Positions 9,590-29,100 of a stretch of DNA of 64,000 bases are shown piece after piece. The stretch covers positions 868,001 to 932,000 of the forward strand of contig OY253681.1 in the NCBI GenBank assembly GCA_958009085.1. The letters run 5' to 3'. The position numbers and the translations under genes are program-made. Source of the DNA: Protoeuglena noctilucae (lineage: Eukaryota). Numbering within the stretch: the first letter of the stretch is position 1; each line of letters opens with the position of its first letter. The notes under the pieces were generated by a model that had not been told where the DNA came from, searched no databases, and worked only from the letters and a program-made list of their open reading frames with translations.

Positions 9590-12500
9590 ATGGCGCACGG
9601 CGAGGCGGGCGAGGCCAGCGTGGGGCTTGGCGAGCTCCTCATCCCCGCCATCAACCGCCTCCAGGATGTGTTCAGCCAGGTGCGCCGGAGGTCGTTGTTG
9701 ATCGAGAGGCCCTTTCCGCGCTCGCGACACGATGGCCGGGGAGCGCAAGCATGTCGATTGGTTCGCACATGTCGTCGCGCAGGAGTGCGCCAGACGAACC
9801 TGGCGTGGCCCCGGCCGCGCGCGGCGCGCAATGCATGGCCCCCGTCCCCGGGGCAGCCCCGCGCGGGCCGCGCCGCCGCTCCGGCGACCCCGCCCGGCTC
9901 CCCCGCGTCCTTATTTTCCAGTTGATCATCTCTTATATCCCAAACGCCCCCTCCGCAGGCCCAGCTCGACTTCACGCTCGACCTGCCCCAGGTCGCGGTG
10001 GTGGGATCGCAGTCCGCGGGGAAGTCGTCGGTCCTGGAGGCTCTGGTTGGTAGGGACTTTCTCCCACGCGGTCCCGACATCTGCACGCGCCGGCCGCTCG
10101 TCCTGCAGCTGGTCAAGCACCGGCCGCGGTGAGTCGCGGGCCTTGGTGTGGCGCCGCACTGCTTGGGCCAGGGTTCGCCAGCCCACAACCGCTGATACGT
10201 TCAGTCGCCATGTCTCTTGCTAAAACCACCTCCACTGCCCCGACCGCTACCCTGCTACTACCACCCATGCTCACCCCATCGTCACCCTACCGCTTACCCC
10301 ACACCCACCACCCCACCCCCCAGCTCCGGCCAGCCCGAGGAGTACGGCGAGTTCCTGCACATCCCCGGCCAGCGCTTCACGGATTTCTCCGCGATCTGGG
10401 CGGAGATCGAAGCGGAGACGCAGCGAGTGACCGGGTCCAACCGCGGTGTCTCGGACCGCCCCATTCGCCTGCGTGTCTTCTCCCCACACGTCCTCACCAT
10501 GACCCTCGTGGACCTCCCCGGCGTCACTCGCGTCCCCGTGGGCGACCAGCCGAGCGACATCGAGGAGCGATTGCGGGAGATGATCATGAACTTCATACGC
10601 CACCCCTCCTGCCTCATTCTTGCGGTGTCTCAGGCCAACGTGGACCTGGCCAACTCCGACGCGCTGCAGATGGCCAGGGCCGTCGACCCGGACGGCCAGC
10701 GCACGATCGGGGTGCTCACCAAACTCGACCTGATGGACCGGGGGACGGACGCGGTGGCGGCGCTGGCCAACCGCGTCGTGCCGCTGCGGCTGGGGTACGT
10801 GGGGGTCGTCAACCGGTCCCAGGCGAGAGAGCGCGGGGGGTGATGAGGGGGGTGTATGTGTAAACAGTTTTGGTTGGTCGGTGGGTAGGCGACGGATGAG
10901 CTGCGCGTGGTTGCTGCCGTGCTAGCTTTCTGTTAGCACCCTGTTAGCATCTGCGCTGTCACAAGCACCGGTCATGCACACAAGTCACTCTGCAGGCGAT
11001 GTCCACTCCCGCAATGCTTTCCGAGTAAAACCTCGCTCTTCATCCCCACCCACCCCCCGCAGCACGACATCCAGTCCGGCAAGTCCATGCCCCAGGCGCT
11101 GGCGGACGCGGACGCCTGGTTCGCCTCGCGCCCCGAGTACCGGGAGGTGGGGGACCGGTGCGGGGTGCGCGCCCTGAGCCGCACCATCAGCCACATCCTG
11201 GTGCAGCACATCCACTCGGTGCTGCCACAGCTCAAGCGGCACGTCGAGGGGACGCTCGCGCGGTGAGATTCGGAGCATGACGCAGTGTCACGCTGGCTTG
11301 GTCGGGGGTGGGGCGGGGTGATTGAGGTATGTACACACGAATGATGCACTCTGTGGTGCATAAAGTCATGTGCCATCTCTTGCAAAGCATCTCTGCATCT
11401 CCTCTTAGCATTCACATCGAACGACAGTGGATCGACAATGCCACCCCATGTCTCTCTTGCAGCAAGTCCAAGGAGCTGCTGGGGTATGGGGAGCCCGCGG
11501 GTGCCACGGCCGCGTCCCGTGGCGGCCTGCTGTTGAAGACGATTAGCGAATACGACGGGAGGTTCAAGGCGATGCTGGACGGTCGCAGTGAGGACCTGCC
11601 CGTGTCGGAGCTGGCGGGAGGGGCGCGCATCCGGCACATCTTCCAGGTGATGTGTGATGCGTGGATGAGTGGGGAAGTGGAATGGGTGGAATGGGTGTGT
11701 TCATCGGATGCGATTGGGTGGGGTGTCTGGAGAGGGGTGTATGCATCGGCACATCCTATGCCAACGCCTCTCCTCACACCCAACCCCATCACCCCCCATC
11801 CCATGCCACCCCATCCCCACCCACCCCATCGCCTCCCACCCCATCACCTCTCCTCCCATCCCATGTCACTCATCCCCCCCCCCCCCCCCCCCAGGACATC
11901 TTCAACGGTGCCTTGGATGAGTACGACCCCTCGAGGGACCTCACCGACGCGGAGATCCGCACGGCCATCAAGAACTCGGGGGGGATCAAGGGGTCTCTTA
12001 TGATACCCGAGGTGAGGTTGAGGATAAGGAGTTGTCGATAAAGCATTGGGTTTCTAGTGACAGCATCAAGGGGTCCCTCATCATACCCGAGGTGAGGGGT
12101 AGCATTGGTATGAAGTTATGGAATGGGCATCAAGGGGTCTCTCATGATAGGCTGGGGAGGGCTAGGCAGGAGTAGGGTAGTGCTAACAAGGGGTTTATTA
12201 GAAAACACGGACACACGAGGTGAGGCGGTGGGCGAGCGTGACTGGCAGTGGATGCTGATGCATGAGAGGCCCGCGAGCGACTGTCGCTACACCTGACCAC
12301 TGAGCTTAGACCGAGCGATACGGGGGAGTGGGTGAGGAGCGGGGTTGGCGTGGGGTGGGTTTTGGCAGTGGTGGGGACAGCGTTGCTGCGGTGCTTGCGA
12401 TGCGGCAGATGCCGACGTCGCCGGCAGGTGCCATCGCGCAAGCACGGGAGCAATGCTGTCCCCACCACCGCCACCCTGGAAGCCACCCCGCTCCTCACCT

Positions 12501-14348
12501 ACCCATCCCACCCACACCGCACCACCACTCACCCCCTCTTCCCTCCAACCCCACCCCAACCCCCACTCCTCACCCACCCCCACTCACCCACCCCACCCTA
12601 CTCGCCCCCCCTTCCATCCCCCCAGGCCCCCTTCGAGATCCTCGTCCGCGCCTCCATCCGCAAGCTCTTACCCCCCGCACTCCAGTGTTCCCACCTCGTG
12701 CACCAGGAGCTGCTGCGGGTGGCGGCCGCGTGCCAGAGCGACGCCCTGGAGCGCTTCCCGCTGCTACAGAAGGAGCTCGACGCAGCCGTGGCGGACCTCG
12801 TGTCTCAGGGCACGGGGCCGTGCGAGAAGATGATACGGGACCTCGTGGACTGCGAGCTGGCCCTCATCAACACCGCGCACCCCGCGTTTATCGGCGGCGC
12901 ACGCGCTGTCACCGCCGTCGTCGACCGCAGGCGCGGGGGTGGCGGCGTCACCGCCCACCGCGTCAGCGCGAGCGGCGGGGTGCTCACCCGCGCGTCCGTG
13001 ATGGCCGGGGTGGCCGCGGCCCACGCCGCCGCCCACGCCGGCCGCCGCGCCGACGACCTTACTAACCCCGCTAACCCCACCACCTCCGCCTCCTCCTCTC
13101 CCCGCGTCGTGCTGCACACCCCCGGCTCCAACCGCGCACACGCGTCCCCCCGAACCTCGGACGCCACCCCCATCGACGCCGCCACCCCCGCCCAACCCCG
13201 GGTGGGGTTCGCGAGTGTGCTCGACCCGCCCCCCACGCCCGGCAGCCTCCTGCGCCCCCCTCCGCCCGTGCTGGTGGTCGACGACGGCCCCTCTGAGCAG
13301 GACGGGATCGAGGTGGAGGTCACGAGGATGCTGGTGGATTCGTATTTCAGGATCGTTAGGTCTACACTGCAAGACATGGTGCCCAAGGTCGTCATGCAGT
13401 TCCTGGTGGGGAACATCACGCGGGAACTGCACCAGCACCTCGTGCAGACGCTGTACAGGTGAGATGGGGGAGGGGAGGGGGGTTGGGGTTGAGATGGGGA
13501 TGGGGTGTGCAGTGCGGCGATGGTCGCAGCTGCCGTCGTAGCCGAGACATTGCTCATCATTCATATTGATAGCCCATAGCAAACCTTTCGCTCCTGACCC
13601 ACGCCAATCACCCATGTAAACCCCATCGTCCATCTCTCACCTCTGCTCTCATCTCTTTCACATTCCATCTCTCACCTCTGTTCTTTCACCTCCCCCTCAC
13701 CTCTCCCTCACCTCTATTCCCTCACTTCTCCTCACCTCCCCCTCGCATCGCAGAGAGGAGCGACTGGAGGCGCTGCTCTCCGAGTCCCCCGACGTCTTAC
13801 GCCGTCGCCAGAAGTGTCACGAGGCCGTCAGCGCCCTGACTCAGGCACTGGCCGCGCTCGAGGGCATACCCAGGGACCTGCAGAAGCGGCTGTCCGTGTC
13901 GAGGAGCATGGCCATCGCAGCTGGGGCCATGCCGGCGGGCACGATACCGGCCGGGGTGTCGCAACACGCGCACACGTACCCGCACCCGCAAATGCACCCG
14001 CATGCGCATGCGTACCCGCAACCGCATGCAGCCGGGGCGGCGCACCCCCACGCGGCCCAGCAGGGGGTGACGCGGGCGATTGCCAGGCAGCCGTCGCCGC
14101 CGGGCGGGCGGAGGCGCAACGCGGCGCGTGGGGCAGGCGACGGGGCTGAGGAGGTGGCAGAGGTGGTGGTGGCGGGGGGATCGCCGCTGCGGAGGGGCCA
14201 GGAGGGCGCGGACGCTGGGGCGGTGGCGGGGGGCGCGTTCCGTGGTTTGGAGAACGTGGGCAGGGCGTTGCGTCAGGCGGGGAGGGGCGGGGCCAAGGGC
14301 GAGCGCATGGAGGACGCTGCGGGCGTCCCCGGGGCTCTGAGGAACTGA
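9590..14348 (+). CDS. DRP3: dynamin-related protein of the DRP3/Dnm1/DRP1 (mitochondrial/peroxisomal fission) type, 8 exons
   Basis: [84 protein letters not shown], and GED segment [26 protein letters not shown]. Confidence 0.93.
12322..12505. repeat. long imperfect inverted repeat (fold-back) in DRP3 intron
   Basis: 12331-12345 pairs perfectly with 12485-12499; 12364-12387 pairs with 12449-12472 (22/24); 12391-12399 pairs with 12437-12445. Confidence 0.85.
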
Positions 14349-14578: not shown

Positions 14579-16965
14579 TCATGGCGCCTCCAGCCCCGGC
14601 ACGATCCCCCTTGCCACCCCATAGGTGCGGTCCACCACCTCCCTCCCCCGCATGCTGAGGCGAGCGGAGAGGACCCGGTTGCCGGCCCTGGCGAAGAACA
14701 CACGGCCGCCCTGGCCACGGTGGGAAGGGAGGTTGGGGTCCGCCACGCGGGGAGCGGCGCCTGGGAGGGGCGATGAGGGAAGGGGACGGGTGAGGAGGGT
14801 GTGGGGATGTGAATGATTGTGATGGGTAGCAGGCGTGGGGGGTTTGAACGGAGGCGAACGAAGGTGACAGGTGCGCAAGGCATTGGAATGAAAACAGCGA
14901 TGGATGCGACCACCCAAACCACCCCCCACCCAAACCACCCCTCACCATCCATGCAGCATGTCCGCTCGGCATCCACCCTTTCCCACATGCACCCACCCCT
15001 CACCATCCATGCAGCACGGGCGCTCCGCATCCGCCATGCCCCACGCGTCGTCCCGCACCGCCCGCACCGCCGCCTCCTCGCCCCGCACCTCCTCCTCCCT
15101 CCACTCCCGGTACTTCAAATACACCTGCTCCGGGCTCATCGTTCCCTTCCGCAGCAGCCGCCGCGCCCGCACCAGCGCCGCGTTCGTCACCCACCGCTCC
15201 TCCGCGCCACGCGAGGGGCGGATGCCGCGAGAGTAGAAGCGGCAGTCGGCGCGGTGGAGCTCCCAGTCCAGCTGCGGGGGTGGGAAGGTGAGAGAAAGTT
15301 AAGGTGAGGTGAGGGGGTCAAGGTGAAGGTGAGAGGGGGTCAAAGGGAGAGGGGCCAGCAAGGTGACCCTTCCGTGCCCACTGCCAAAGTGCCACACCGC
15401 CCCATGCAGTCCCTGCACCTCTCTGACTCACCAGCGAACACGCCTCCGAGCAGTAAAAGGTCCGGTGGCACTTGTCGCAGGGCCGCAGCCGCGCCCCGTC
15501 CCCCCGCCAGAAACTTCGGCGGCCGCACCCCGCACACTGCGCCACCGCCATGCACCGAGGCACCCCGTTGGCCGGGGGCGCCGCCGCCCGCGCCGCGCGA
15601 CGGTCCGCTGGCTCCGGAGACGACATTAGCAGCAAATCGGACGCCGCGCTCGTCTCCAGCGCCGCCTCCCTCACGCCCTCGTGTGGGCCGCACTCTTCAG
15701 GTTCAGGGTTCGATCCCCGGCACTCCCCCTTTTCCCCACAGCCCCCCTGCTTCCCGCACCCGCACCCCTGTCCCCCCCGCTTCCCTCCTCCCCCGTACAG
15801 CTGCACCCTCCTGCCCCACACACCCGCAGTGTCGAGTGCCGCCCCACCCACGCGCTCGGCGAACCCCACATGACCGCAGCGGCCCGAGTAAGGCCGCAGG
15901 ATCTTGTCCCGCATGCGCTGGTTCTGCGTTGGCAGTAACTGCATTTGTTTAGATATGTACATGGGTACATGGCGTGGCAGTGTAGCGTGAGTGCGGTCAG
16001 GATGCAGATCGGCAGTCGGTGCCACGACGACTCGCAGGTGACAGCGGCCATAAGTCATGGGCCATGCCGTGACATGGAACGTCACCTCAGGTGCGCGCAT
16101 CCGCTCCTCCCTCCTCCGCTGCTCCGCCACGCGATGCCGTGCCGACTCAGGTCGCGCCTTGGCTGGCACGGGCGGCCAGTCCGGGTCGCGCAAGACCTTG
16201 AGTTCGCCCATGCGCCGCGCACCCGCGCCCTCGGGCTTGCCCTCGCGGAGGCTGCGGTGGCCCCCTGCGCGGGGAAGCGAGGCTTGTGCGGCCATGTCGC
16301 GATGTCGCATTTGGGAGCGCAGCCAGCGGCGGAGCGCGGGGCAGATCCTCACGCGGCGCGTGGAAGGTCGCAGGAGGCTCCTTGGCGATCGAAGCGAGCC
16401 GCTCGGCGATGCGGCGGTTGTCGCGGTTGACGTCGGCAGCAAAGCGCCGCTGGTTGATGGAGTTCGTCGAGCGGAACCAGGTGGGGGCGCTTCTGGGCCT
16501 CTCTGCAGGTGCCAGAGTTAGCGTTTTATAACTCGCGGGAGCTGGCATAGGACAAGGCGGGGATCGCTGGCCGGCAGCGGCGCGGCAAGGGCGCAGTGTC
16601 GCCTAGCTGTGCCTCGACAGCGCCGCGCAGGGTCACGGTGGGGCCGCAGTGATCAAGCGAGTAACGAATTGAGGTTTAGAACATGTCAGCGACGTCATTG
16701 CCGCAGGAATCCGAGGCTTGCCTGGCCTGGCTTTGGCGTTCGGGGCCGAGCCTGAAGTGGACGCGACCGCGGGGTACTGGACCTCCTCAAAGTAACGGCC
16801 CAGACCATCAGGCAGTTTGACGGACCTTCGAGGAGTTTCGGCAGGCCTTGGCCTCTCCTCGGGCGGCAGCACGGGCACGGCTGCATCCGGTGCAAGCGGG
16901 GCTGCCCGAGGGGGCGAGCCCGGCCCCTTCGCGGGCTTGGAAACCTTCCCCCGCACTACCTCCAT
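14579..16965 (-). CDS. MYND zinc-finger protein with an N-terminal CFAP97/KIAA1430-like helix
   Basis: MYND: CAGC...CDKC..FYCSEACSL|LDWELHRADC across an intron. N-terminal part contains NSINQRRFAADVNRDNRRIAERLASIAKEP. Stop TGA 14579-14581. Start uncertain (in-frame ATGs at 16965, 17106, 17136). Confidence 0.7.
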
Positions 16966-17204
16966 CCCGTGTTGAAGTACAGAGGCGGTGGAAGAGACTA
17001 CCGGGCAGATGACGAGCGAAAACAGGTACGCCCACATGCGCGTCAGAAAAGGCTGGCTCGGGTTCCAAATCCGGCTCGCTTGGTTTGTCGCCGGTTCATA
17101 TGGCATGTGCGCGCTTTCAAGCGGTCTGTCACGCATCCCGGGATGCCAGGGGTCCTTCGATGGCGTAGGATGGCATAGGGGCCGGAGTGGGTGGCTCGTC
17201 AAAA

Positions 17205-20200
17205 ATGCAGCCCTCCCGGGAGGTCGTACGAGCCTCGCCGCCAGCGGGACCCGTCGACAAGGGTGTCATTGAGCGCCGGGAATCGCACCGCGCCGCCTCG
17301 CCCTTCAGCGACGGCAGGAGACCGGATGCGAAACTCGCTCCGCTTCCGCCGCCGCGGAGACGGGAATCTGCCAGCCACGGTCCCCAGCGCGTCACCTCCG
17401 CGAGTCGTCAGCAACGCACGCCTGTCGCGGAGGATGGGCCGCCCGGCGAGCAGCCGCCAGGCGACCCCAATAAGGATGCTTCCGCCAGGTGTCGCCCCAA
17501 GGGCGCCGCTGCCGCGGATGGGGACGCCGATGCATGCGTCGACGCTGACCCGGCGAAGTTCGGCGTCCCGGAGCGCCCGGGCCGCCTGCGGGAGGTGTTT
17601 GACGTGGGCGAGGAGCTCGGGCGTGGCGGATACGCGACGGTGTTCGCGGCCCGGCGGCGCGCGGACGGGGAGCGATTCGCTGTTAAGCGCGTCGACTTCT
17701 TCCAGCTGCCCCCGCGGTGAAGCGCGCTCTGGATTCGCGCATCCGCACCAATCGGTTTTACTTTCGCCAAGCTGCGTGTTGTTGTGCAAACACGAGTCGT
17801 TCCGCGCTCTGCGCAGGAAGCGCCTCCGGTGTCTGCGCGAGGTGCAGCTGATGAAGCCCCTCCGGCACCCGCACGTCATCCAGATGGTCGAGGTGAGCAG
17901 CTAAGGGGGCCCGTCAAGCCATCCGAAGTTGCTGCGATGTTTTGAGGCCATTCAACCATCACGAATCCTCTTCCTCTCTTCTCCCAGGCCTTCGTAGACG
18001 GCGGTTTCCTCATCCTGGTCCTCGAGTGGGCGCCGGGGGGCGACCTGAAGTCCCACGTTCGCAGGCGTGCCAAGGCGGGGCGGCTGATGGACGAAGTCGC
18101 TGTCTGGGCCAACTTCCTGCAGGTGAGAGAGACGCAGACACGGCTGCAGCAGCAGCAAAGTGAGTACGTATGAGTATCTGTGAGTATATATGAGTATCTA
18201 AAGATGCTTGTCGGCGAAAGCGAGAGCTCTCCAACATCACGCAGGTGGCGGAGGGCGTGCGCTACCTCCACTCCCGCCGGGTGGTGCACCGGGACGTGAA
18301 GCCAGCCAATGTGCTGGTGGGGGCTGGAGGGGAGCTCAAAGTCGCGGACCTGGGGCTGGGCGTGGAGCTGGAGGGAAGCGGGGGAGAGGCGTACTCCAAA
18401 GTGAGACGGAGGGAGCGGGGGTGGGCTTGTGGGGGGTGGCTGGGTGTTTGAGGGGGAGGGGTTGGAACATGGATGTGTCAGGACCTCATTACTCTCATCC
18501 ACTCTCCGTCCCTCTCACCCCACACCTCTCACCCCTCGCCCCCTCTGCTTAGCACCCCACCCCTCAGCCCAACCCAATGTTCACCTCTCCCCGTTCCCTC
18601 TTGCTTGTCCAGGTGGGCACCCCCTACTACGTCTCCCCAGAGGTGCTGCGAGGCACGGGGCACTCGTATGCCTCAGATGTGTGGTCGCTGGGGTGTTTAT
18701 TATACGAACTGGCGGCACTGAGGGGTCCCTTTGAACGAAAAGGGTCGTCACTGCCGGAGGTCTTCAAGCGGGTCACGGCTGGGGAATACCCACAGCTGCC
18801 AGAGGGGCGTTTCACGGCGGCGCTCGAGGGGGTGGTGGCCGACGCGCTCACGGTGAGCGAGGCCGCTGGGTGTCACTGCTGCTGCATGCGAGGGTCAGCG
18901 TATCAGTGTGACATGGAGTCGCTTTGTTATAACTCTTATACTACGGTTCTGTCATATCAGATGACTATCAGTCAACCTGTACATGCTAACACATATCATC
19001 TCGCTCCTTTCCACCCCCGTCTCGCCCCCAGGTGGACCCATCGCAGCGAGTGACGCTCGATGCCCTCACCGCCAGGGCCCAGGCAGCGCTAGAGGGTCTG
19101 CTGAAAGCCGGGCACGACGCGATCGGAGCGGCGCAGAGGGGATGCGACGCGGCGAGGGTGGTGTGGCTGAGGATGCGGTCGGAGGGGCGAGGGGCGAGCG
19201 CGGGGCGGTCCCGCAGCGCATCGCCCCTCGCCGACAGCGCCCTCACCGTCGCATACGGCAGCGGCAGCGGCAGCGGCAGCGGTGGGGCCAAGTGCGGGTC
19301 GGGGGAGAGTCCCGGGGTAGAAGCGCAGCGATGGGCGGCAGCGGGGGCGGAGGTGCCTTTGCCGTGGTCGGCACTGACGGCGGGGGCGGTGGGTACACTG
19401 TCACCTTGGCTGATCGCAGCTCCCCCGGGCACCTCCCGCGGCGACTGGCCGGCCGCGAGGGAGCAGCTGGGGTGCCTGGCGGAGCTGGCGTGCGTTTTGG
19501 GTCTTGCGGCGGCAAGGGGTGGGGCGGGGTGGGCGAGGGCGGTGGGGGCAGCGGGGGCGGCGCGGGCAATGCTGGAGGCCGGGACGCCGAGGGCGGGGGG
19601 CTGCGCGGTGCCTTTGGTGAGTTGGTGCGTGTGAAGATGGGCGCGGAGATCGGGTGTGAGTTTATGGCTACCACCGCAACACCCCTGCCGCAACACTTAC
19701 ACCGCAACACTTATACCGCACCACCCCTGCCCTACCCCCCGTCACCCCGCAGGCACCGGAAGAGTCAGACACAGAAGCCCGTGTGTCCCTCGCCCATCAC
19801 TTGCGAGACTTGGCATCCGCTGCGGGGGTGGATGTGAGCCTCATAACCACCTGGGGCGTCGCTCAGGGGTGGGGACGGGAGGCGTGTGCGCTGCTGGGGG
19901 CCCTGGGAGGTGAGAAGTGTGTGTTGCAAGTGGCAAGTGCGTCTAGTAGCTACTTCGCATGGCACTTTAACAAACAAACGGGGCTGTCGCGACCGCACTT
20001 TGATGCACCCTCATCCCCCGCTGTCAATCCGCAGATGCTGCCATGTCTTCTTCCCACCAAGGAGCTCTCTTCAGACGCCCCATCAGCCGAGTGGCGTCTG
20101 GTCGTAACAACAACCACACCAGCCCCTGCCCCGCACCAACACCCGTGCCGGTGGGGTGGGCCCCAACACCCGATGAGCGATTGTCCGAAGACCGACGGCC

Positions 20201-20927
20201 ATTGTCGGAGATATGGGTCGACGATCGGCAGGAGAGGGAAGCCCTTGTTATCGAACAAAGCGAGGAGGGGGACGGGGTGGGTGCGGGTTTGCAAGCAGAT
20301 GGTTGCAATGTTGGTGTCGCAAGCAAGCAAGGTGGTCGAGGTGTACATGGGGATGGGGCGTGCGAGCGCATGAGCAGCACGGGGGGGCATCCCGAGCCAC
20401 CAGTCGGCCGCTCGTCTGATCCGCGAGGGATGGATGTCCAGGCTGACTGTGCGCCGTGGCCGGTGCAGTCAACACAGCTGCTGTCAGCAGCACTGGCGGA
20501 GCTGCGGGGGGCGGCGCTGGTCGTGGCGCCCGCGCTGCGGCGGCTGTCGCGCGGCGTGGCTAAGGATGTGGAGGGAGTGGCGTCTCGGGAGAGGCGGGTG
20601 GCGGAGGCGGTGGCGGGGCTTGTAAAAGAGTTGGGGCGTGAGAGGGCGAGGGAGGGTGCAGCGAGGGAGCGGCTGCGGGTGGCGGAGGAGGGGGTGGCGC
20701 GAGCCAAGGCAGGGCTGGCGGCGGTGGATGCGGAGCTGCGGGATATAAGCGAGCGCGTGGCAGCCGTGACTGCGACGGGGGCGGAGGGGACAGCGGAGCT
20801 GCGGGCAGCGGTGCGGAGGTTGGGGGCGGAGTTGCAGGGCATGCGGGTGCGGGAGGGGCTGCTGGTGGGGGAGATTGACAGGAGAGAGCGGGCACGGGCG
20901 GCGACGCTGCGATCGGACAGGCGTTGA
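17205..20927 (+). CDS. NIMA-related (NEK6/7-like) Ser/Thr kinase with a C-terminal IFT57-like region, 8 exons
   Basis: LGRGGYATV, AVKRV, CLREVQLMKPLRHPHVI, LVLEWAPGGDL, HRDVKPANV, KVADLGLG, YSK|VGTPYYVSPE, DVWSLGCLLYELAALRGPF, VDPSQR. The frame continues via exons 19032-19616, 19753-19909 and 20035-20927. Confidence 0.9.
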
Positions 20928-21011
20928 TGAGTTCAGACTTCGGACAGACAGCATACGGACCTGCGTTGTATGGGCTGAGGTGGTAGCGTGCAGTTACGGT
21001 GATTTTGGTAG

Positions 21012-21016
21012 TGTAA
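21012..21016 (+). promoter_or_regulatory. possible chlorophyte-type polyadenylation signal TGTAA
   Basis: TGTAA ~85 nt after the NEK stop. Similar motifs follow the Rab stop (33127-33131, +) and the CDC20 stop (33415-33419, -), but most other genes lack one. Confidence 0.3.
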
Positions 21017-21385
21017 CGTCATCAACTGTCTTCTTTCTCTTGCACGGACACTCTGGCTCCCCAGCGGTGCGGCCTTTTTTCTTGTTTATCACAATTGGAC
21101 TGCACATTGTGGTCGTTCATAGCCTGTGAGTGACTCTACTGGTGTCCCTTTCGTGTTCCATTGTCACACGACATTCAGCTGTCATTCACAGAGCTGACTC
21201 TTGACCTTCCGATCGTACTACCTCGTGACCTTGTGATGCTTGGAGATTTCAAAAGCTTCACAGAGCCGCAGCTGCGTCGGAAAGTCACAGGCATGCTTCG
21301 ATAGACAGCAAATCCACGCCATGGCTCGTGGGACTAGTAACGACGAAAAGGAAAGATGACACTTCTCTCCCGCACCCACCCAGCC

Positions 21386-24300
21386 TCAGAACTCCTCCTC
21401 ATCGCTCCCCACCACTGCCGTGCTCGCCACCCCCTCGCTCCCACTCTCGCACACCCTCCCTGCCCCCCGCGCCCCCTCCTCCTCCACTCGCATCCTCTTC
21501 GCCACCACCTCCACCTCCACGTCACCGTCATCCACCTCCTTGCCATTCTCTGCCGCCTCTGCCCTTTGCTTTCCACCCTTACGGCCACCCCCGCGCCCGC
21601 CTTTGCCTTTGCCCGCCTTGCGCCCGCGCCCGCGCCCACGCCCCCGGCCACGGCCCCGGCCAGACGCGCCATTCTGCACCGCACCGCCGCTCTCCGCCTC
21701 CCCACCACTCTGTGCCGCAGCGCCACTCTGCGCCGCACCACCGCTCTCCACTTCCCCGCGCGCCCTCTTCCGCGATGCCCCGCCACTCTTCGCCGCCCCG
21801 CCGCTCCTCGCGTCCCCTCTTGCCACCCCGCTCGGCTCCTCGCCCGCCCCTCCCACCCTCCCCAGCTTCTTCCAATCGTTGGTGCTGGTCAGTCGCGGTC
21901 CCTGCCCGGGCAAACGCACCAGTCGGAACTTGAACACCTGCGATGATGTAAATGGATCAGAGACTGTCTGGTAACACTATCTGAGCTTGTACACCTGAGA
22001 TGGAAGACAATGCGTGATAGTGGTGTTAGCAGATTGTGTTACTAACTGCAACGGACAGTAAGATCGACAGACTACCCCGCTCGCTCGCTCATTTGGCTGC
22101 CACCTCCGCTACCCTGCTACCCTGGCTGCTCTCATCGCATCACCCCATCAGCCACCACTCAAGCATCCAACGCATATCCCATGCCAGCTCACCTTGAAGC
22201 CCTTCTGCCCCGGAATGAACTTGTACCCAATCACGCGGTGCAGGCCGTCGTAGACGTAGTCGGTCTTGAGCTTCTTGGACTGCCCCACGTCCTGCAGCTG
22301 CTTCCGCCACACCCGGATCGGCACGCCCATGTGCATCGAGTTGATCATGCCGCGGTTGGCGGCTGCGGGGAAAGCGAAGCGCATGTTGTCAGTGCGCTTG
22401 ACGAGCGACGCTCCGCCCGTCATGTGTGGATGAGGCGGCCCTCCTGGCCAGGTCGACGTGTGAGAGCGACACGTGATGGCAGCGTGCGAGAGTGACATGC
22501 GATGGGAGACATGCGATCGACGTGCGACCATCATGCAACATATGCGATATGCGACATATGGAGCATGCGACATACGAAGCACCATGCAATATAAAGCAAC
22601 ACGCGATACAGCAACACGCCGCAGCGACGCACGGGTGGCAGTCTGGTCGGCCTTCTGATCCCTCTTGTGCAAGAGGTCGTTGCCGCCTGCGCCTGTATAT
22701 GACCACATGTACTGCCCCTCCTGCAGCTCCCCGTGACTCTCGACGTACGCCTCGTCCACCTCCTTCCACAGCGCGCAGTCCGCCGACGCTGTCGCCTGGT
22801 CAGCGTTGTCCTGCTTACGAGGCAAGGGACGGGCGAGGTGAGACGAGCGGGAGAGGTTTCTATGATGGGTGCGGTCAGGTGCGCATGAGAAGACGAATGG
22901 AGCGGCGGGCATGGTGATGGGCACAGGCAGGTCGGCCACCCTCTCCGCTTTGTGCAACCCCGCCCACGCAAGCACCCGGCCCGCCCTCGTCACCCTGTCC
23001 GCATCATCCCACCCACGCACCCACGCACGCACGCACCTGGTAGTTGCCGCCGTCGCAGATGCAGGCCGCGAATTCCGGGTGACCGAGGATCTTCGCTACA
23101 GTTCCCTGCCGCAGATCCGCGTCGGTGACACCCTCCCCACTGCCCTCGATGCGCCCCTCGCAGTGCAAGACGACAAAGATGCCATCCATGGGCTTCGCGT
23201 GGGCGCCCACCAGCCGCATCATCTGCCGGCTGGGCAGCTTGGCGCCCACGGGAAGGCCGGGGAGGTTGCCCACCAACGGTCGTCCGTCGGGGCCGCCCGT
23301 CTTGAGATCGACGTCGCGGTTGAGGAACGCGCGGTGCTCCATCAGGTAATTGGCGGTGTAGTCGTCGGGGCGGGGAGTCATGCGCTTTCCGTCCTTCATC
23401 CCGGCCTTTGCCCCCTTGGGGTGCGGGTGCTGGCCGTACACGCGCATGTTCTCCGCCCTGTCTTGCTGCGGCGGGCGAGAGGGCAGGGGTGCCATTGGCG
23501 TGGCATGCACACTGCACGACACATGTCAACAAGATGGCAATCGCAGTCATGACATGCAAACACTCGCAAACGCTCGCAAAGACCGCTCGTGTAGTAACTA
23601 AGCGAAGTTGCTCCGTCGCACGCCATGTTGCTCCCTCACCACCTCGCGCACGGCCGCGTAGAGGCTCTTGAGCTTCTCCACCTTCTCGCAAGCGGCCGCG
23701 TCCTCAGCAGGGTCCACCACCAAACACGCCTTGATCCCGAACTGCTCCATCGAGAAAGCCCTGTCACGGAAGTCGCCCTCCTCCACGCCTACCGTCTTCT
23801 CGCGTGACGGCAGCCCTGGGAAGCCGTCCCTCCGCCGCGCCGCCAGCGCCGCCATCACCACCGCCCTCTTCTCTCGCGCGCCGTACAGCGGGGTGGGGGG
23901 CGCCACCAGCTCCGCCGGCACCGGGGGCAAATCGACCGCCGCATTCGGATCGCCCTGCTCCTCTTCACGCTGCTCCGCCTCCGCCTCGACCTCCACCCTC
24001 CCTCGCCCATGCCCCCCGCGCTTTGCCCCGCCACTCCTACCCCCTCCCGCGCTCGCCCCTCCACTCCTGCCCCCTCCCGCGCTCGCCCCTCCACTCCTGC
24101 CCCCTCCCGCGCTCGCCCCGCGCCCCTGCCCGCCCCGCCCGCGGCCCCCGCGCTCCGCCGCACGCGCGGGCGCCGCCACCCGCCCCTCGCTGGCCTCCTC
24201 CTCCACACCGCCGCGCGCCCAACAGTCGTCTTCCCCGCTCGACGGCGCGTACTCCTCCGCATCGCTCCCCGACAGCCGCTCCCCAGACGCCTCCGAACTC

Positions 24301-25768: not shown

Positions 25769-26116
25769 CGTCGCGCCTCAGCGCGGCCCCGGGGGCCTCC
25801 AGCGGTACTCCCGCGCGCCTTTGCTGTGTCTCCCGCCAAAAGTGACGATCGCGCCGCGCTGAAGGGTTACAGACCAAGTGCGGATGCCCAAGCCTTTCAA
25901 TCACGTACTCTGACTCAGATCCGGCGCGGCTGGCCCAAATAGTGGGTCGTCGCACCGCGGGCGCCGTCTGACATGCGGGTCACACCCGCATGGGGCCTTG
26001 CACCGCTGTTCTTCGACGCCCCAGCCAAGCGACCAGACAGTCCGTGTAATAAGGACAGGTTATCTCCTTCATCAGGTCGACTAGGTCTGTTTGCGTGAAG
26101 AGCCTACCCCGGCCCC

Positions 26117-29100
26117 TCACGTCAGCCGGTGGGCCCCCCCGGCGGCTCCTTCCCTCCGCTTGGTCAGCTGTTTCCCCGCGTCTATCACACGCTTCTTCCG
26201 CGACAGCACCGCATCCCGCTTGCGCTTCTCGGAGGCCTCCTGCGGGCGAGGGAGAGCAGGGCGAGTGATGATGACAAAAGGAGGGTGGGTGACGGGGACA
26301 GAGGGTGAGTGATGGGGACAGAGACACGAAAGCAGTAGCATCACTGCCATCCCATGACGCCCTCGCCTTGGTGGCGCTCTTGCCGATCATCTTGGGCTTC
26401 TCCCTCAGCGCAAATGCATGGGCCGCGTGACCCAGGTGGAGCTTGTGGACCTGGAATATGTCCCTGCATGACAAGGGGACACGGTGGAAAGGCACATGGC
26501 TGGGGCTGCCACGTTGCCACACTTGGTACATCGCAGTCAACGACCTGCCTCACTGCGCTGTGGCACGTCGCATGTCACTGGCCAGGCGACCTCTCCCTCC
26601 CACGCTCGCCTGACGCTGGCCTTGCGCACAATCCATCACCCACACCACACCACACCGGCCCCCTCGTCTCACCTCACGCTGGCCTGGTGCAACACGTATG
26701 ACCCACCATCATGTCGTCTCACCTCACGCTGGCCTGGTGCACGGCGTAGGCCCTGATGTAGGACCGGAAGGCCGACTCGGCGAGCTTGGCGAGGGCGGGG
26801 TCGGCCGTGACGACCTCGGACAGCGTGCGCATGAGGAAGGCGCTGGCGGAGAGGACCCGGTCGCTGACGCCGGACAGAGGGGCGGGGTCGGTGGAGCCGG
26901 GGGCGGGGCGGCGACGCTGCGGGTGGGTAGTCAGTAAGTGGGGTAGGTCTGTGACTGAGTCAGTAGGTCAGAAGCGAGGGTGCTAGCCAGATCGCGGTAG
27001 GTGTAGCACTGGTCAGCATATGCCGAGCGTCACTAGGCGACACGGTTTGGATGAACAGCACTATCTTCGATATTTGAATTAACAATCCTCGCCTTGTCAG
27101 ATCCGAAGGGCGACAGTGCCTCGACGGGCAGTGCCGACAGCAGCCGCCCCGCCGCCATACGCTCGACCCTGAGACCCCGCGCCCGCAGCCGCTCCACGTA
27201 GGGCGTCTCGGATGGCAGCAGCATCAGCACCGCGTCACCGGTCCGGTGGAACCGGGCCGTGCGCCCGATCCTGCAAACACGTGCAACGAGTGACTGTAAG
27301 TGAGTGACAGTGGTGGCAATCACCGTGAGTACACTCGCACTGTGTTACTGTCTCTGTCTCCAAACCATTCCACATGTGCCACTGCCTGTCTCTCACAGTG
27401 CCGTTGTCAATCAGCGGCCATCACACGCGCACGCTCCACCCCGCACCCCAGCCACCCCTCGCCTGTGCACGTAGCTCTCCACCTCGCCCGGAGGATCGTA
27501 TTGCACGATCAACGACACGGATGGGAAGTCCAGGCCACGCGCCGCCACGTCCGTGCAGAGCAGCACCCCCGCCTCCGCCCGCACAAACGCCACAAACGCA
27601 GCCGACCTTGCGCCCTGGGGCATATTGCCGTGGAGTTTCCAGACGGGAGCGGGGACCAGCGGGCCCGCTAGGTCGCCGTCGCCGTCCTTGGCGCCCCCAT
27701 CGCCCCCGCCACGCTTGCGCTTGCGCCCCGCCCCATTCGCCTCCGCTCCCGCCCCCCCCGCTCCCCGCTCCGCCAGCGATCCCATCGCCCGCGGCCACAC
27801 GTCCGCGGCGAGCGCGTGCAGGAACTCGACGCCATCGCACGAAGACGCAAACACGACCGCCTTGCCGGTCCCGTCCCGCACCCGCGACCGCAGCAGCCCC
27901 AGCAGCGCGGGCAGGCGCGTCTTGGCGGGAACTTCAACGAAGAATTGACGGAGCGTCGCGGGGATATCAAAGACCTCTTCCTCACCCGCAGAGGCGGCCC
28001 CAGCTGCACTTGCGCCATCGCCCCTCTCTGCACCCGCTTTCCCGCCGCCGCCGCCGCCATCCCTCTCCGCTGCGTTGCTGGGAACATCGTGGACTGCGGC
28101 GGCGTGGCTGACGGCGACGCCGCCCCCGGCCGCGGCGGAGAGGGCAAAGCCGACGGTGGCGGGGTCGTGGAGGGACATGGACGCCAGGTGGGAGAGGTCG
28201 GGGTGGAGCGTGGCCGAGTACAGAAGGCGCCTGAAAGGGGCAAAGAAGGGGGAGAGAGCGTGCGAGGGCGGAGGGGTGCAGTCTGTCAGGGATCAAACGC
28301 AACGCACCCGCTGTCGTGCGCTGCATTGCACCACGGTGCATTCGTCCCCATCGGTACCTAGGTCCCTCGCCTGAACCGCCCCGCGCGTCCCCGCTTCTCC
28401 AGCGCCTTGACGATGTCCCCCAGTACTTCCCGGAACCCCATGTCGAGCAGTCGATCTGCCTCGTCCAGCACCAGCCACGCCAGGCGTGACGTGTCCAGAG
28501 ATGCGGTGTTGACCAAATGGTCCAGGAGGCGGCCGGGGGTGCCCGTCAGCACCGAGACGCCCTTTCTGAGACGTATAAGAGCAGGTGCAGGGGTTGCTGG
28601 TGTGCGAGCAGTGCGATGGGATGCAAGGGGGTTGGAAGCGTCATGGTGGGCCATGCAGCGTAGTTACGCTCTCTATTACACCTCTGCCAGTGGCCTTCTC
28701 ACCCCGTCCCTCTCTCTCTCTCTGCCCCACCCCTCACCTCCGCCACTCTTATCTCACCCAGTCCCTCTCTCCATCTCCCACCCCTCACCTCAGCCGCGCC
28801 TTCTCACACCCCTGTCCCTCCCTCTGTCTCCCCCCTCACCTCAGCCGCGCCTTCTCCTTCGCCCGGTTCTCCCCCCCCGACACGCACGACCCCACCACCC
28901 AGTGGAAGCGCCTCAGCAGCACAGCCAAGACATCCGCGATCTGGGAGGCCAGCTCACGGGTGGGCGCAACCACCACCGCGTACGTGCCATCTGCGAGCGA
29001 GGGGGAGAGGGATCAAGGGCGTTGTGTTGAACGCACAAACTAGGCTTTAAGGGCAACGCATGGATGTTGCACACACGCTCACTGTGCCCCTATCCTCTTT

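Follow-up and report, generated by a model that had tools for sequence, protein, structure and literature searches.

Does a single gene of Protoeuglena noctilucae join a NEK protein kinase to a domain derived from IFT57, a subunit of the intraflagellar transport (IFT) machinery? The question is raised by positions 17205-20927 of a stretch of 64,000 nucleotides (contig OY253681.1, positions 868,001 to 932,000 of the forward strand, GenBank assembly GCA_958009085.1), which we call the window. An initial annotation, made from the letters alone, had read this locus as a NEK kinase fused in frame to an apparently complete but diverged IFT57 domain. Our analysis shows one expressed gene, a fast-evolving member of a conserved family of NEK-IFT57 fusions, in which the C-terminal 530 or so amino acids (aa) descend from IFT57 and comprise a CH-like helical domain, a spacer and a long coiled coil. 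The probability that the fusion is real, that its tail is of IFT57 descent and that the protein belongs to this family is, in our estimate, about 0.9.

Kinase and tail in one open frame

A model built from the open frames and the sequence has the exon coordinates of the initial annotation. The gene has eight exons, seven introns that are all of the GT..AG type, and an open frame of 2754 bases, from the ATG at 17205 to the TGA at 20925-20927, that codes for a product of 917 aa. The introns are short, mostly of the form GTGAG...CAG, with a GC content of 49 to 63% against 59 to 74% for the region. As had been claimed, kinase and tail meet within one exon: the translation of exon 6 (19032-19616) is free of stops from the VDPSQR motif of the kinase through about 100 low-complexity residues, including a GS repeat, to EQLGCLAELACVL and beyond. 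Retention of intron 6 leads to a stop codon at 19632-19634. There is no Met codon in the translation of exon 7, which is therefore unable to begin a separate protein. The open frame alone is weak evidence, because at 74% GC several frames are open over the same DNA.

The unnamed protein product of the green alga Pedinophyceae sp. YPF-701 (P0005) was aligned to the model by BLASTP in a single match that crosses the boundary between kinase and tail (model aa 106-625 against aa 9-487, 45.5% identity over 527 columns, E = 4e-116), and the nine best BLASTP matches of the model were all fused proteins. From exon 6 over both junctions into exon 8, the identity with P0005 is 44% over 81 columns (E = 5e-6), a match that none of 300 local shuffles reached, and the residues at the exon 6/7 joint are kept (PL before it, AP after it). 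As the aligned stretch continues over the exon 6/7 and 7/8 junctions, homology lends support to intron 6. Together with the absence of a Met codon from exon 7, the homology across the kinase/tail boundary and the exon junctions bears out the claim that these are not two merged genes.

RNA evidence came from the contigs of four marine metatranscriptome runs of one study, which contain 12 to 37% of the sampled words of the stretch; the contigs were compared with 16800-21300. Of 28 contig records, 27 were at least 99% alike. GT..AG joints were found for five of the seven introns, namely 1, 2, 3, 5 and 7 (runs are given in Table 1). Among the contigs of the four runs, none covered or joined across introns 4 and 6, which by itself says nothing. 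The RNA cover of exon 6 (19031-19247, 19202-19362 and 19438-19596) includes no joint within the exon. Contigs are unable to prove one continuous mRNA molecule; the check for a single transcript came out in part, with five intron joints and transcribed tail exons on one side and an unseen joint of intron 6 on the other. Taking the open 917-aa model, the RNA joints and the match to P0005 across boundary and junctions together, the claimed in-frame fusion stands.

Two of the RNA contigs extend from exons into introns 5 and 7 (18901-19247 and 19844-20001), so the libraries contain unspliced pre-mRNA or some genomic DNA of the organism. One contig of run X1 fits 18279-18320 only (42 bases in the region of the HRD catalytic loop, 90 to 95% alike, with unlike flanks); it is probably from another kinase gene or another organism.

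The N-terminal part is a NEK6/7-like Ser/Thr kinase, predicted from its motifs to be catalytically intact. Pfam Pkinase matches separate exon pieces. In a comparison with the PDB the ten best matches of exon 5 were NEK7 chains (E about 2e-17), followed by PLK1 and NEK2 at 5e-12; exon 4 alone did not discriminate, its best rows being EGFR, GCN2 and Aurora A. P0016, a partial, kinase-only member of the same clade from Micromonas commoda, matched NEK7 at 2e-72, NEK1 at 1e-52, NEK2 at 4e-43 and non-NEK kinases at 1e-38 or weaker. The NEK assignment of the initial annotation was confirmed by these matches of exon 5 and P0016. All motifs are present in the alignment: GRGGYA, FAVK, the helix C Glu (CLREV), HRDVKPAN, DLG (the DLGLG form of DFG), SKVGTPYYVSPE and DPSQR. 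Human NEK7 and NEK6 are the closest solved kinase domains; the DLGLG variant of DFG and the GTPYY(M/V)SPE segment are motifs that they have in common with the Protoeuglena kinase. NEK6 and NEK7 have little beyond the kinase domain and are not known to have an IFT57-like tail.

One apparent relative at 98%, P0003, was set aside. It is a piece of an open reading frame (ORF) of the same species from another public assembly, identical at 157 of 158 positions including the read-through of intron 5, and so it is not independent evidence. P0003 has GNPYY where 18613-18630 encodes the conserved GTPYY; allelic variation or a sequencing error would account for this difference at a key Thr of the activation segment.

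Descent of the tail and its fused relatives

Taken alone, the tail is a weak but specific match to IFT57 at the sequence level. Exon 8 matched the Pfam profile IFT57 (PF10498) with E = 6e-8 (32.5 bits, profile 237-356 of 360), and this was the only Pfam family below E 0.1 on the exon, the next one standing at E 0.1. Exon 6 alone and exon 7 alone gave no Pfam match at E up to 10, so that the profile recovers the proposed domain in exon 8 but at a score below its 40-bit cut-off, and not in the two exons before it. A feature-based search of the ESM Atlas returned IFT57 clusters as its ten best rows (best 0.90, 195 of 256 features), with Cluap1 at rank 15; the recognition value of the query was low, and the result is a lead only. 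A search with exon 8 among 1.84 billion representatives, a word-indexed search for longer proteins and one for near relatives at E up to 10 yielded nothing but pieces of its own ORF (P0001 and P0002), and scans of metagenome contigs and genome contigs with exon 8 yielded no relatives. A null of this kind from a single sequence is no evidence against homology, because a relative at 30 bits is not reportable at such database sizes. The predicted self-pairing of two copies of the last 162 residues was 0.01 against a mark of 0.32, which is no answer either way.

Relatives were gathered by a search with exon 5 for longer proteins, which gave 54 matches among 271 candidates. Thirteen of the 54 (670 to 1002 aa) have both Pkinase and PF10498. 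The fused relatives with a source name are P0005, P0014 from Haematococcus lacustris, and P0010, an MMETSP entry named 'Transcript ... ORF ... type:comple(te)'. When 27 relatives were rescanned with Pfam, 12 were above the IFT57 cut-off at 57 to 144 bits, covering up to profile 1-358 or 36-360; P0005 had 36.1 bits, in the C-terminal part only, like the Protoeuglena protein, P0023 had 19.7 bits, and the other 13 were without an IFT57 match. A profile of 13 tails detected eight more fused relatives. The architecture of Pkinase plus IFT57 is thus found elsewhere, in 21 of the 54 exon 5 relatives, the remainder being mostly short fragments. For the tail of P0007, the PDB held only two matches at E up to 0.01, both of them Chlamydomonas IFT57 (8ruy_M and 8bd7_M; E = 6e-20, residues 157-469). 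As this tail matches IFT57 chains only, we conclude that the family tail is a true and nearly whole IFT57 domain.

A fused subgroup (P0024, P0025 and P0026) is very common in public marine data, P0025 representing 267 member sequences. The kinase of P0016 lies at near-zero tree distance from fused P0024, which makes the marine subgroup probably Micromonas-like; the gene model annotated in Micromonas could be a NEK-IFT57 gene cut short.

How does the Protoeuglena protein stand to this family? Its spliced tail scored 64.2 bits, in two stretches, against the 13-tail profile, a score that none of 1000 shuffles reached (maximum 8.1), and the reversed sequence scored -3.5. Leaving out P0005, so that every training tail passes the Pfam IFT57 cut-off, gave a 12-tail profile against which the spliced tail scored 66.2 bits (0 of 1000 shuffles, maximum 5.0): 28.1 bits over model aa 511-705, encoded by exons 6, 7 and 8, and 43.1 bits over aa 769-908. 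The tail of P0005 scored 58.7 bits against the same profile, with the same pattern of two stretches. That the tail is IFT57-derived, as first proposed, is thus argued for by the Pfam match, the profile score, the IFT57 clusters of the Atlas and the match of the family tail with Chlamydomonas IFT57. In a tree of the kinase domain (39 rows), the Protoeuglena protein is sister to P0005 (100/99), and both are inside a clade of 27 rows (100/99) in which every member of at least 560 aa is fused. Two fused proteins, P0021 and P0033, stand outside this clade, beside three tail-less proteins.

The completeness of the domain is another matter. An E-INS-i (MAFFT) alignment showed the tail to be collinear with the family tails, with the coiled coil through to the C-terminus. 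LSPWLIAAPP was placed under LHPxFFAEP, EQLGCLAELACVLGL under QLGxFxxxFAWLL, and RVSLAHH...GWGREACALLGALG under RVRLG...GxGRxVCxLL. Because an aligner always aligns something, the first part was tested alone, and its family profile gave 4.6 bits, a score equalled by 9 of 1000 shuffles. The N part by itself scored 29.4 bits, compared to a maximum of 8.0 in 1000 shuffles. What had been called an apparently complete IFT57 domain keeps the second half of the CH-like part (28 bits) and the coiled coil (43 bits), but its first third is marginal (4.6 bits). Similarly, of four blocks said to be collinear with IFT57, the coiled coil is significant and the alignment is collinear, while the EQLGCLAELACVL block is marginal and the third block, VQADCAPWPVQSTQL, is outside both significant stretches. 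MAFFT aligns VQADCAPWPVQSTQL with a different one of the family's Trp motifs; neither placement has a significant profile stretch behind it.

A structural view was obtained from an AlphaFold2 model of the P0005 tail (alignment of 20 rows, mean pLDDT 69.6), which has a confident helical domain at 95-212 and two long, confident C-terminal helices, with low confidence over the first 94 residues. IFT57 (8ruy_M) ranked first in both searches with this model (Foldseek E = 0.088, probability 0.82, no other row exceeding 0.25). Such scores are weak, and they apply to P0005 rather than to the Protoeuglena protein.

Several observations weigh against the reading given here. The 32.5 bits of exon 8 alone are below the Pfam gathering cut-off of 40 bits, and phmmer found no IFT57 chain in the PDB for exon 8 (E up to 1), for the last 162 aa (E up to 10) or for exon 7 (E up to 10). 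The family profile of the first part gives only 4.6 bits against the tail portion of exon 6, which includes EQLGCLAELACVL, and 9 of 1000 shuffles did as well. Large low-complexity insertions interrupt the tail, and the joint of intron 6 was not seen in RNA contigs. An Arg follows DLGLG in 10 of 10 aligned relatives, where the Protoeuglena protein has Val. Finally, the branches are long, 0.55 for the Protoeuglena protein and 0.38 for P0005 against a median of 0.093, so that interfaces may have changed.

Such divergence and insertions, with a first third that is barely recognisable, might also be expected if the kinase were the sole working part and the C-terminal region were decaying in this lineage, relaxed and largely disordered. 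We regard this as improbable, given that 530 codons in three exons read through without a stop, their splice sites intact, that RNA contigs include the tail exons and show intron 7 removed, and that two stretches still match the family profile (28 and 43 bits); P0005 also has the same pattern (58.7 bits), and its model is confident in those stretches. It is more improbable still, and close to refuted, that neighbouring kinase and IFT57 genes were wrongly joined or that a generic coiled coil was taken for IFT57. Although a GC content of 66 to 74% gives long chance open frames, several of them open here, and the unseen joint leaves room for a wrong join, exon 7 is without a start codon, the match with P0005 runs over the kinase/tail boundary and both junctions, and 21 relatives are fused, including the MMETSP transcript ORF P0010. 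As to the coiled coil, exon 8 falls short of the Pfam cut-off, but no Pfam family other than IFT57 is below E 0.1, and none of 1000 shuffles came near the profile score.

Known counterparts and a possible role on IFT trains

We retain the reading of a NEK kinase with an IFT57-derived tail. The initial annotation had left it open whether such an architecture was described before. It was, for ciliates: a 2017 preprint on the Stentor coeruleus kinome (10.1101/168187) describes ciliate NEK kinases with a C-terminal IFT57 domain, and the layout also occurs in annotated green-algal proteins. The ciliate proteins resemble the Protoeuglena protein in having an N-terminal NEK kinase and a C-terminal IFT57 domain; their hosts are ciliates rather than a green-alga-like organism, and the likeness is drawn from the preprint's description only. 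In a Euplotes paper, IFT57 and NEKs are only listed separately. Full-text literature searches returned no other paper with this layout, no paper on green-algal members and none on the function of NEK-IFT57 proteins. The layout is thus already known from ciliates and functionally unstudied, and the Protoeuglena protein is a new, strongly diverged member.

Among the individual counterparts, P0005 (723 aa) has the same layout, falls in the same kinase clade and has an equally diverged tail (Pfam 36.1 bits); compared to it, the Protoeuglena protein is longer by about 100 residues at the N-terminus, and its insertions are larger. P0014, annotated as 'kinase-like domain-containing protein' (1002 aa), shares layout and clade, and Pfam recognises IFT57 clearly in its tail (81.8 bits). 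Canonical IFT57 (Chlamydomonas 8bd7_M and 8ruy_M; human IFT57/HIPPI) has the same order of CH-like helical domain, spacer and C-terminal coiled coil; it has no kinase, and the Protoeuglena tail has diverged so far that it gives no pairwise match with solved IFT57. Chlamydomonas CNK4, a NEK that controls flagellar stability and length, was considered as a counterpart and dropped: it is a protein of 525 aa in which the kinase domain is accompanied by low-complexity regions and a PEST sequence, and it is closer to NEK1. Both are NEKs, but an IFT57 domain is not mentioned in the CNK4 paper (0 occurrences).

A role may be proposed from what is known of the two halves. IFT57 reportedly pairs with IFT38 in IFT-B2. 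Both proteins contain a coiled coil, through which they pair, and a CH domain; together they link IFT-B2 with IFT-B1 and also touch IFT20/54 and IFT172. NEKs act on cilia; in Chlamydomonas, FA2 and CNK2 are ciliary NEKs that control flagellar stability, length or shedding. A near-whole IFT57 domain on a NEK would most simply take the place of IFT57 in some particles. If the IFT57-like tail keeps the assembly mode of IFT57, the partner of its coiled coil in IFT-B2 would be IFT38/CLUAP1 or one of its paralogues. In a minority of IFT particles the seat of IFT57 would thus be filled by a NEK kinase, carried by IFT-B or parked on it. Located in this way both at the base of the flagellum and along its axoneme, the kinase could act by phosphorylation on those IFT, motor or tubulin-associated proteins that determine the length, stability or disassembly of flagella. 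We give this inferred seating of the kinase in IFT-B2 somewhat less than even odds.

Alternatively, the tail may be IFT57-derived and yet out of IFT, having become, once duplicated and fused, a paralogous scaffold that targets the kinase elsewhere (basal body, spindle or cortex) or oligomerises it and so activates it. Coiled coils are used by other NEKs for scaffolding and oligomerisation, and animal NEK6/7-type kinases act in mitosis. Strongly diverged tails would fit such a change of use: Pfam gives 32.5 bits for Protoeuglena and 36.1 bits for P0005, compared to 57 to 144 bits in 12 relatives, and pairwise similarity to solved IFT57 chains was not detected by phmmer against the PDB. The long branches of the kinase tree and the low-complexity insertions point the same way. 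However, the whole IFT57 layout is collinear over about 500 aa in 21 relatives, which is more than a dimerising helix needs, and the best conserved parts are the CH-like core and the last helices. We view a scaffold independent of IFT as a minority possibility.

To return to a kinase seated in IFT-B2, a wider version of it may be ventured. NEK-IFT57 proteins would form one ancient family, present in green algae, ciliates and uncultured marine protists, that takes the seat of IFT57 beside IFT38 in a fraction of IFT-B2, as a train-borne kinase that reads or sets flagellar length and disassembly. In the lineage of Protoeuglena and Pedinophyceae sp. YPF-701 the tail would have changed rapidly, perhaps towards a new partner. 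This wider proposal is speculative; we rate it below the seating itself, as a minority possibility.

Features, neighbourhood and significance

The features of the gene are collected in Table 1.

Table 1. Features of the NEK-IFT57 gene, in positions of the window; X1 to X4 are the four metatranscriptome runs
Feature	Position	Strand	Content and evidence
Coding span	17205-20927	+	7/7 GT..AG introns, open frame; RNA joints at 5/7 introns
Exon 1	17205-17716	+	Low-complexity N-terminus (about 125 aa), then kinase subdomains I-II (GRGGYA, FAVK); RNA contigs over 17099-17544; intron 1 joint in X2
Exon 2	17817-17892	+	Kinase helix C region (CLREVQL); joints of introns 1 and 2 in X2
Exon 3	17988-18122	+	Kinase N-lobe/hinge; joints of introns 2 and 3 in X2
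Exon 4	18245-18400	+	Catalytic loop HRDVKPAN and DLG motif; Pfam Pkinase E 8e-15; intron 4 joint not seen
Exon 5	18613-18852	+	Activation segment SKVGTPYYVSPE to helix G, NEK7-like (NEK7 E 1.7e-17); intron 5 joint in X2 and X3
Exon 6	19032-19616	+	Kinase subdomain XI (VDPSQR), low-complexity linker, start of IFT57-like region
GS repeat (exon 6)	19256-19282	+	Translation, alignment
LSPWLIAAPP (exon 6)	19398-19427	+	Translation, alignment
EQLGCLAELACVLGL (exon 6)	19461-19505	+	Translation, alignment
Exon 7	19753-19909	+	Core of CH-like part of IFT57-like domain (RVSLAHHLRDLASAAGVDV...GVAQGWGREACALLGALG); intron 7 joint in X3
Exon 8	20035-20927	+	End of CH-like part, acidic/low-complexity spacer, C-terminal coiled coil; RNA contigs over 20408-20963
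NEK6/7-like protein kinase domain	17586-19091 (introns included; model aa 128-393)	+	All catalytic motifs present
CH-like half of IFT57-like domain, N-terminal	19443-20288 (introns included; model aa 511-705)	+	28.1 bits against 12-tail profile
IFT57 C-terminal coiled coil	20478-20897 (model aa 769-908); Pfam PF10498 match 20511-20864	+	Pfam E 6e-8; 43.1 bits against 12-tail profile
3' untranslated region	20928-21264 (at least 337 bases)	+	RNA: X4 contig 20804-21264, X2 contig 20889-21243

Short tandem repeats occur in intron 3 (18160-18199, period 20, 2 copies) and in intron 6 (19688-19724, period 14, 2.6 copies). The neighbours, identified by Pfam on raw open frames, are a dynamin-like gene (Dynamin_M, GED) at 11326-14348 on the forward strand and, on the reverse strand, a SAD/SRA gene at 22148-23095 and a DEAD-box, SPB4-like helicase at 25980-28292. 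They are ordinary nuclear genes, with no ciliary gene cluster among them. Just upstream of the kinase gene, at 15318-16517 on the reverse strand, an open frame of 399 aa ends in a Cys/His pattern like that of a MYND-type zinc finger (CAGCGRR...CDKCHRTFYCSEAC), with no Pfam match at E up to 1e-4. Rfam detected no RNA family in the window.

What is learned of the Protoeuglena gene itself is modest, namely its correct exon structure and the recognition of an unusually diverged copy in its lineage. The interest of the family is wider. How cilia and flagella gauge and adjust their length is an open question in which NEKs and IFT are both implicated, with the physical link between them missing; a kinase that comes with its own IFT-B subunit is an obvious candidate for that link. 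The layout is not a ciliate oddity: at least two green algal classes have it, as do common marine relatives, Micromonas probably among them. Its kinases make up a coherent NEK6/7-like clade, and it is therefore testable in tractable algae.

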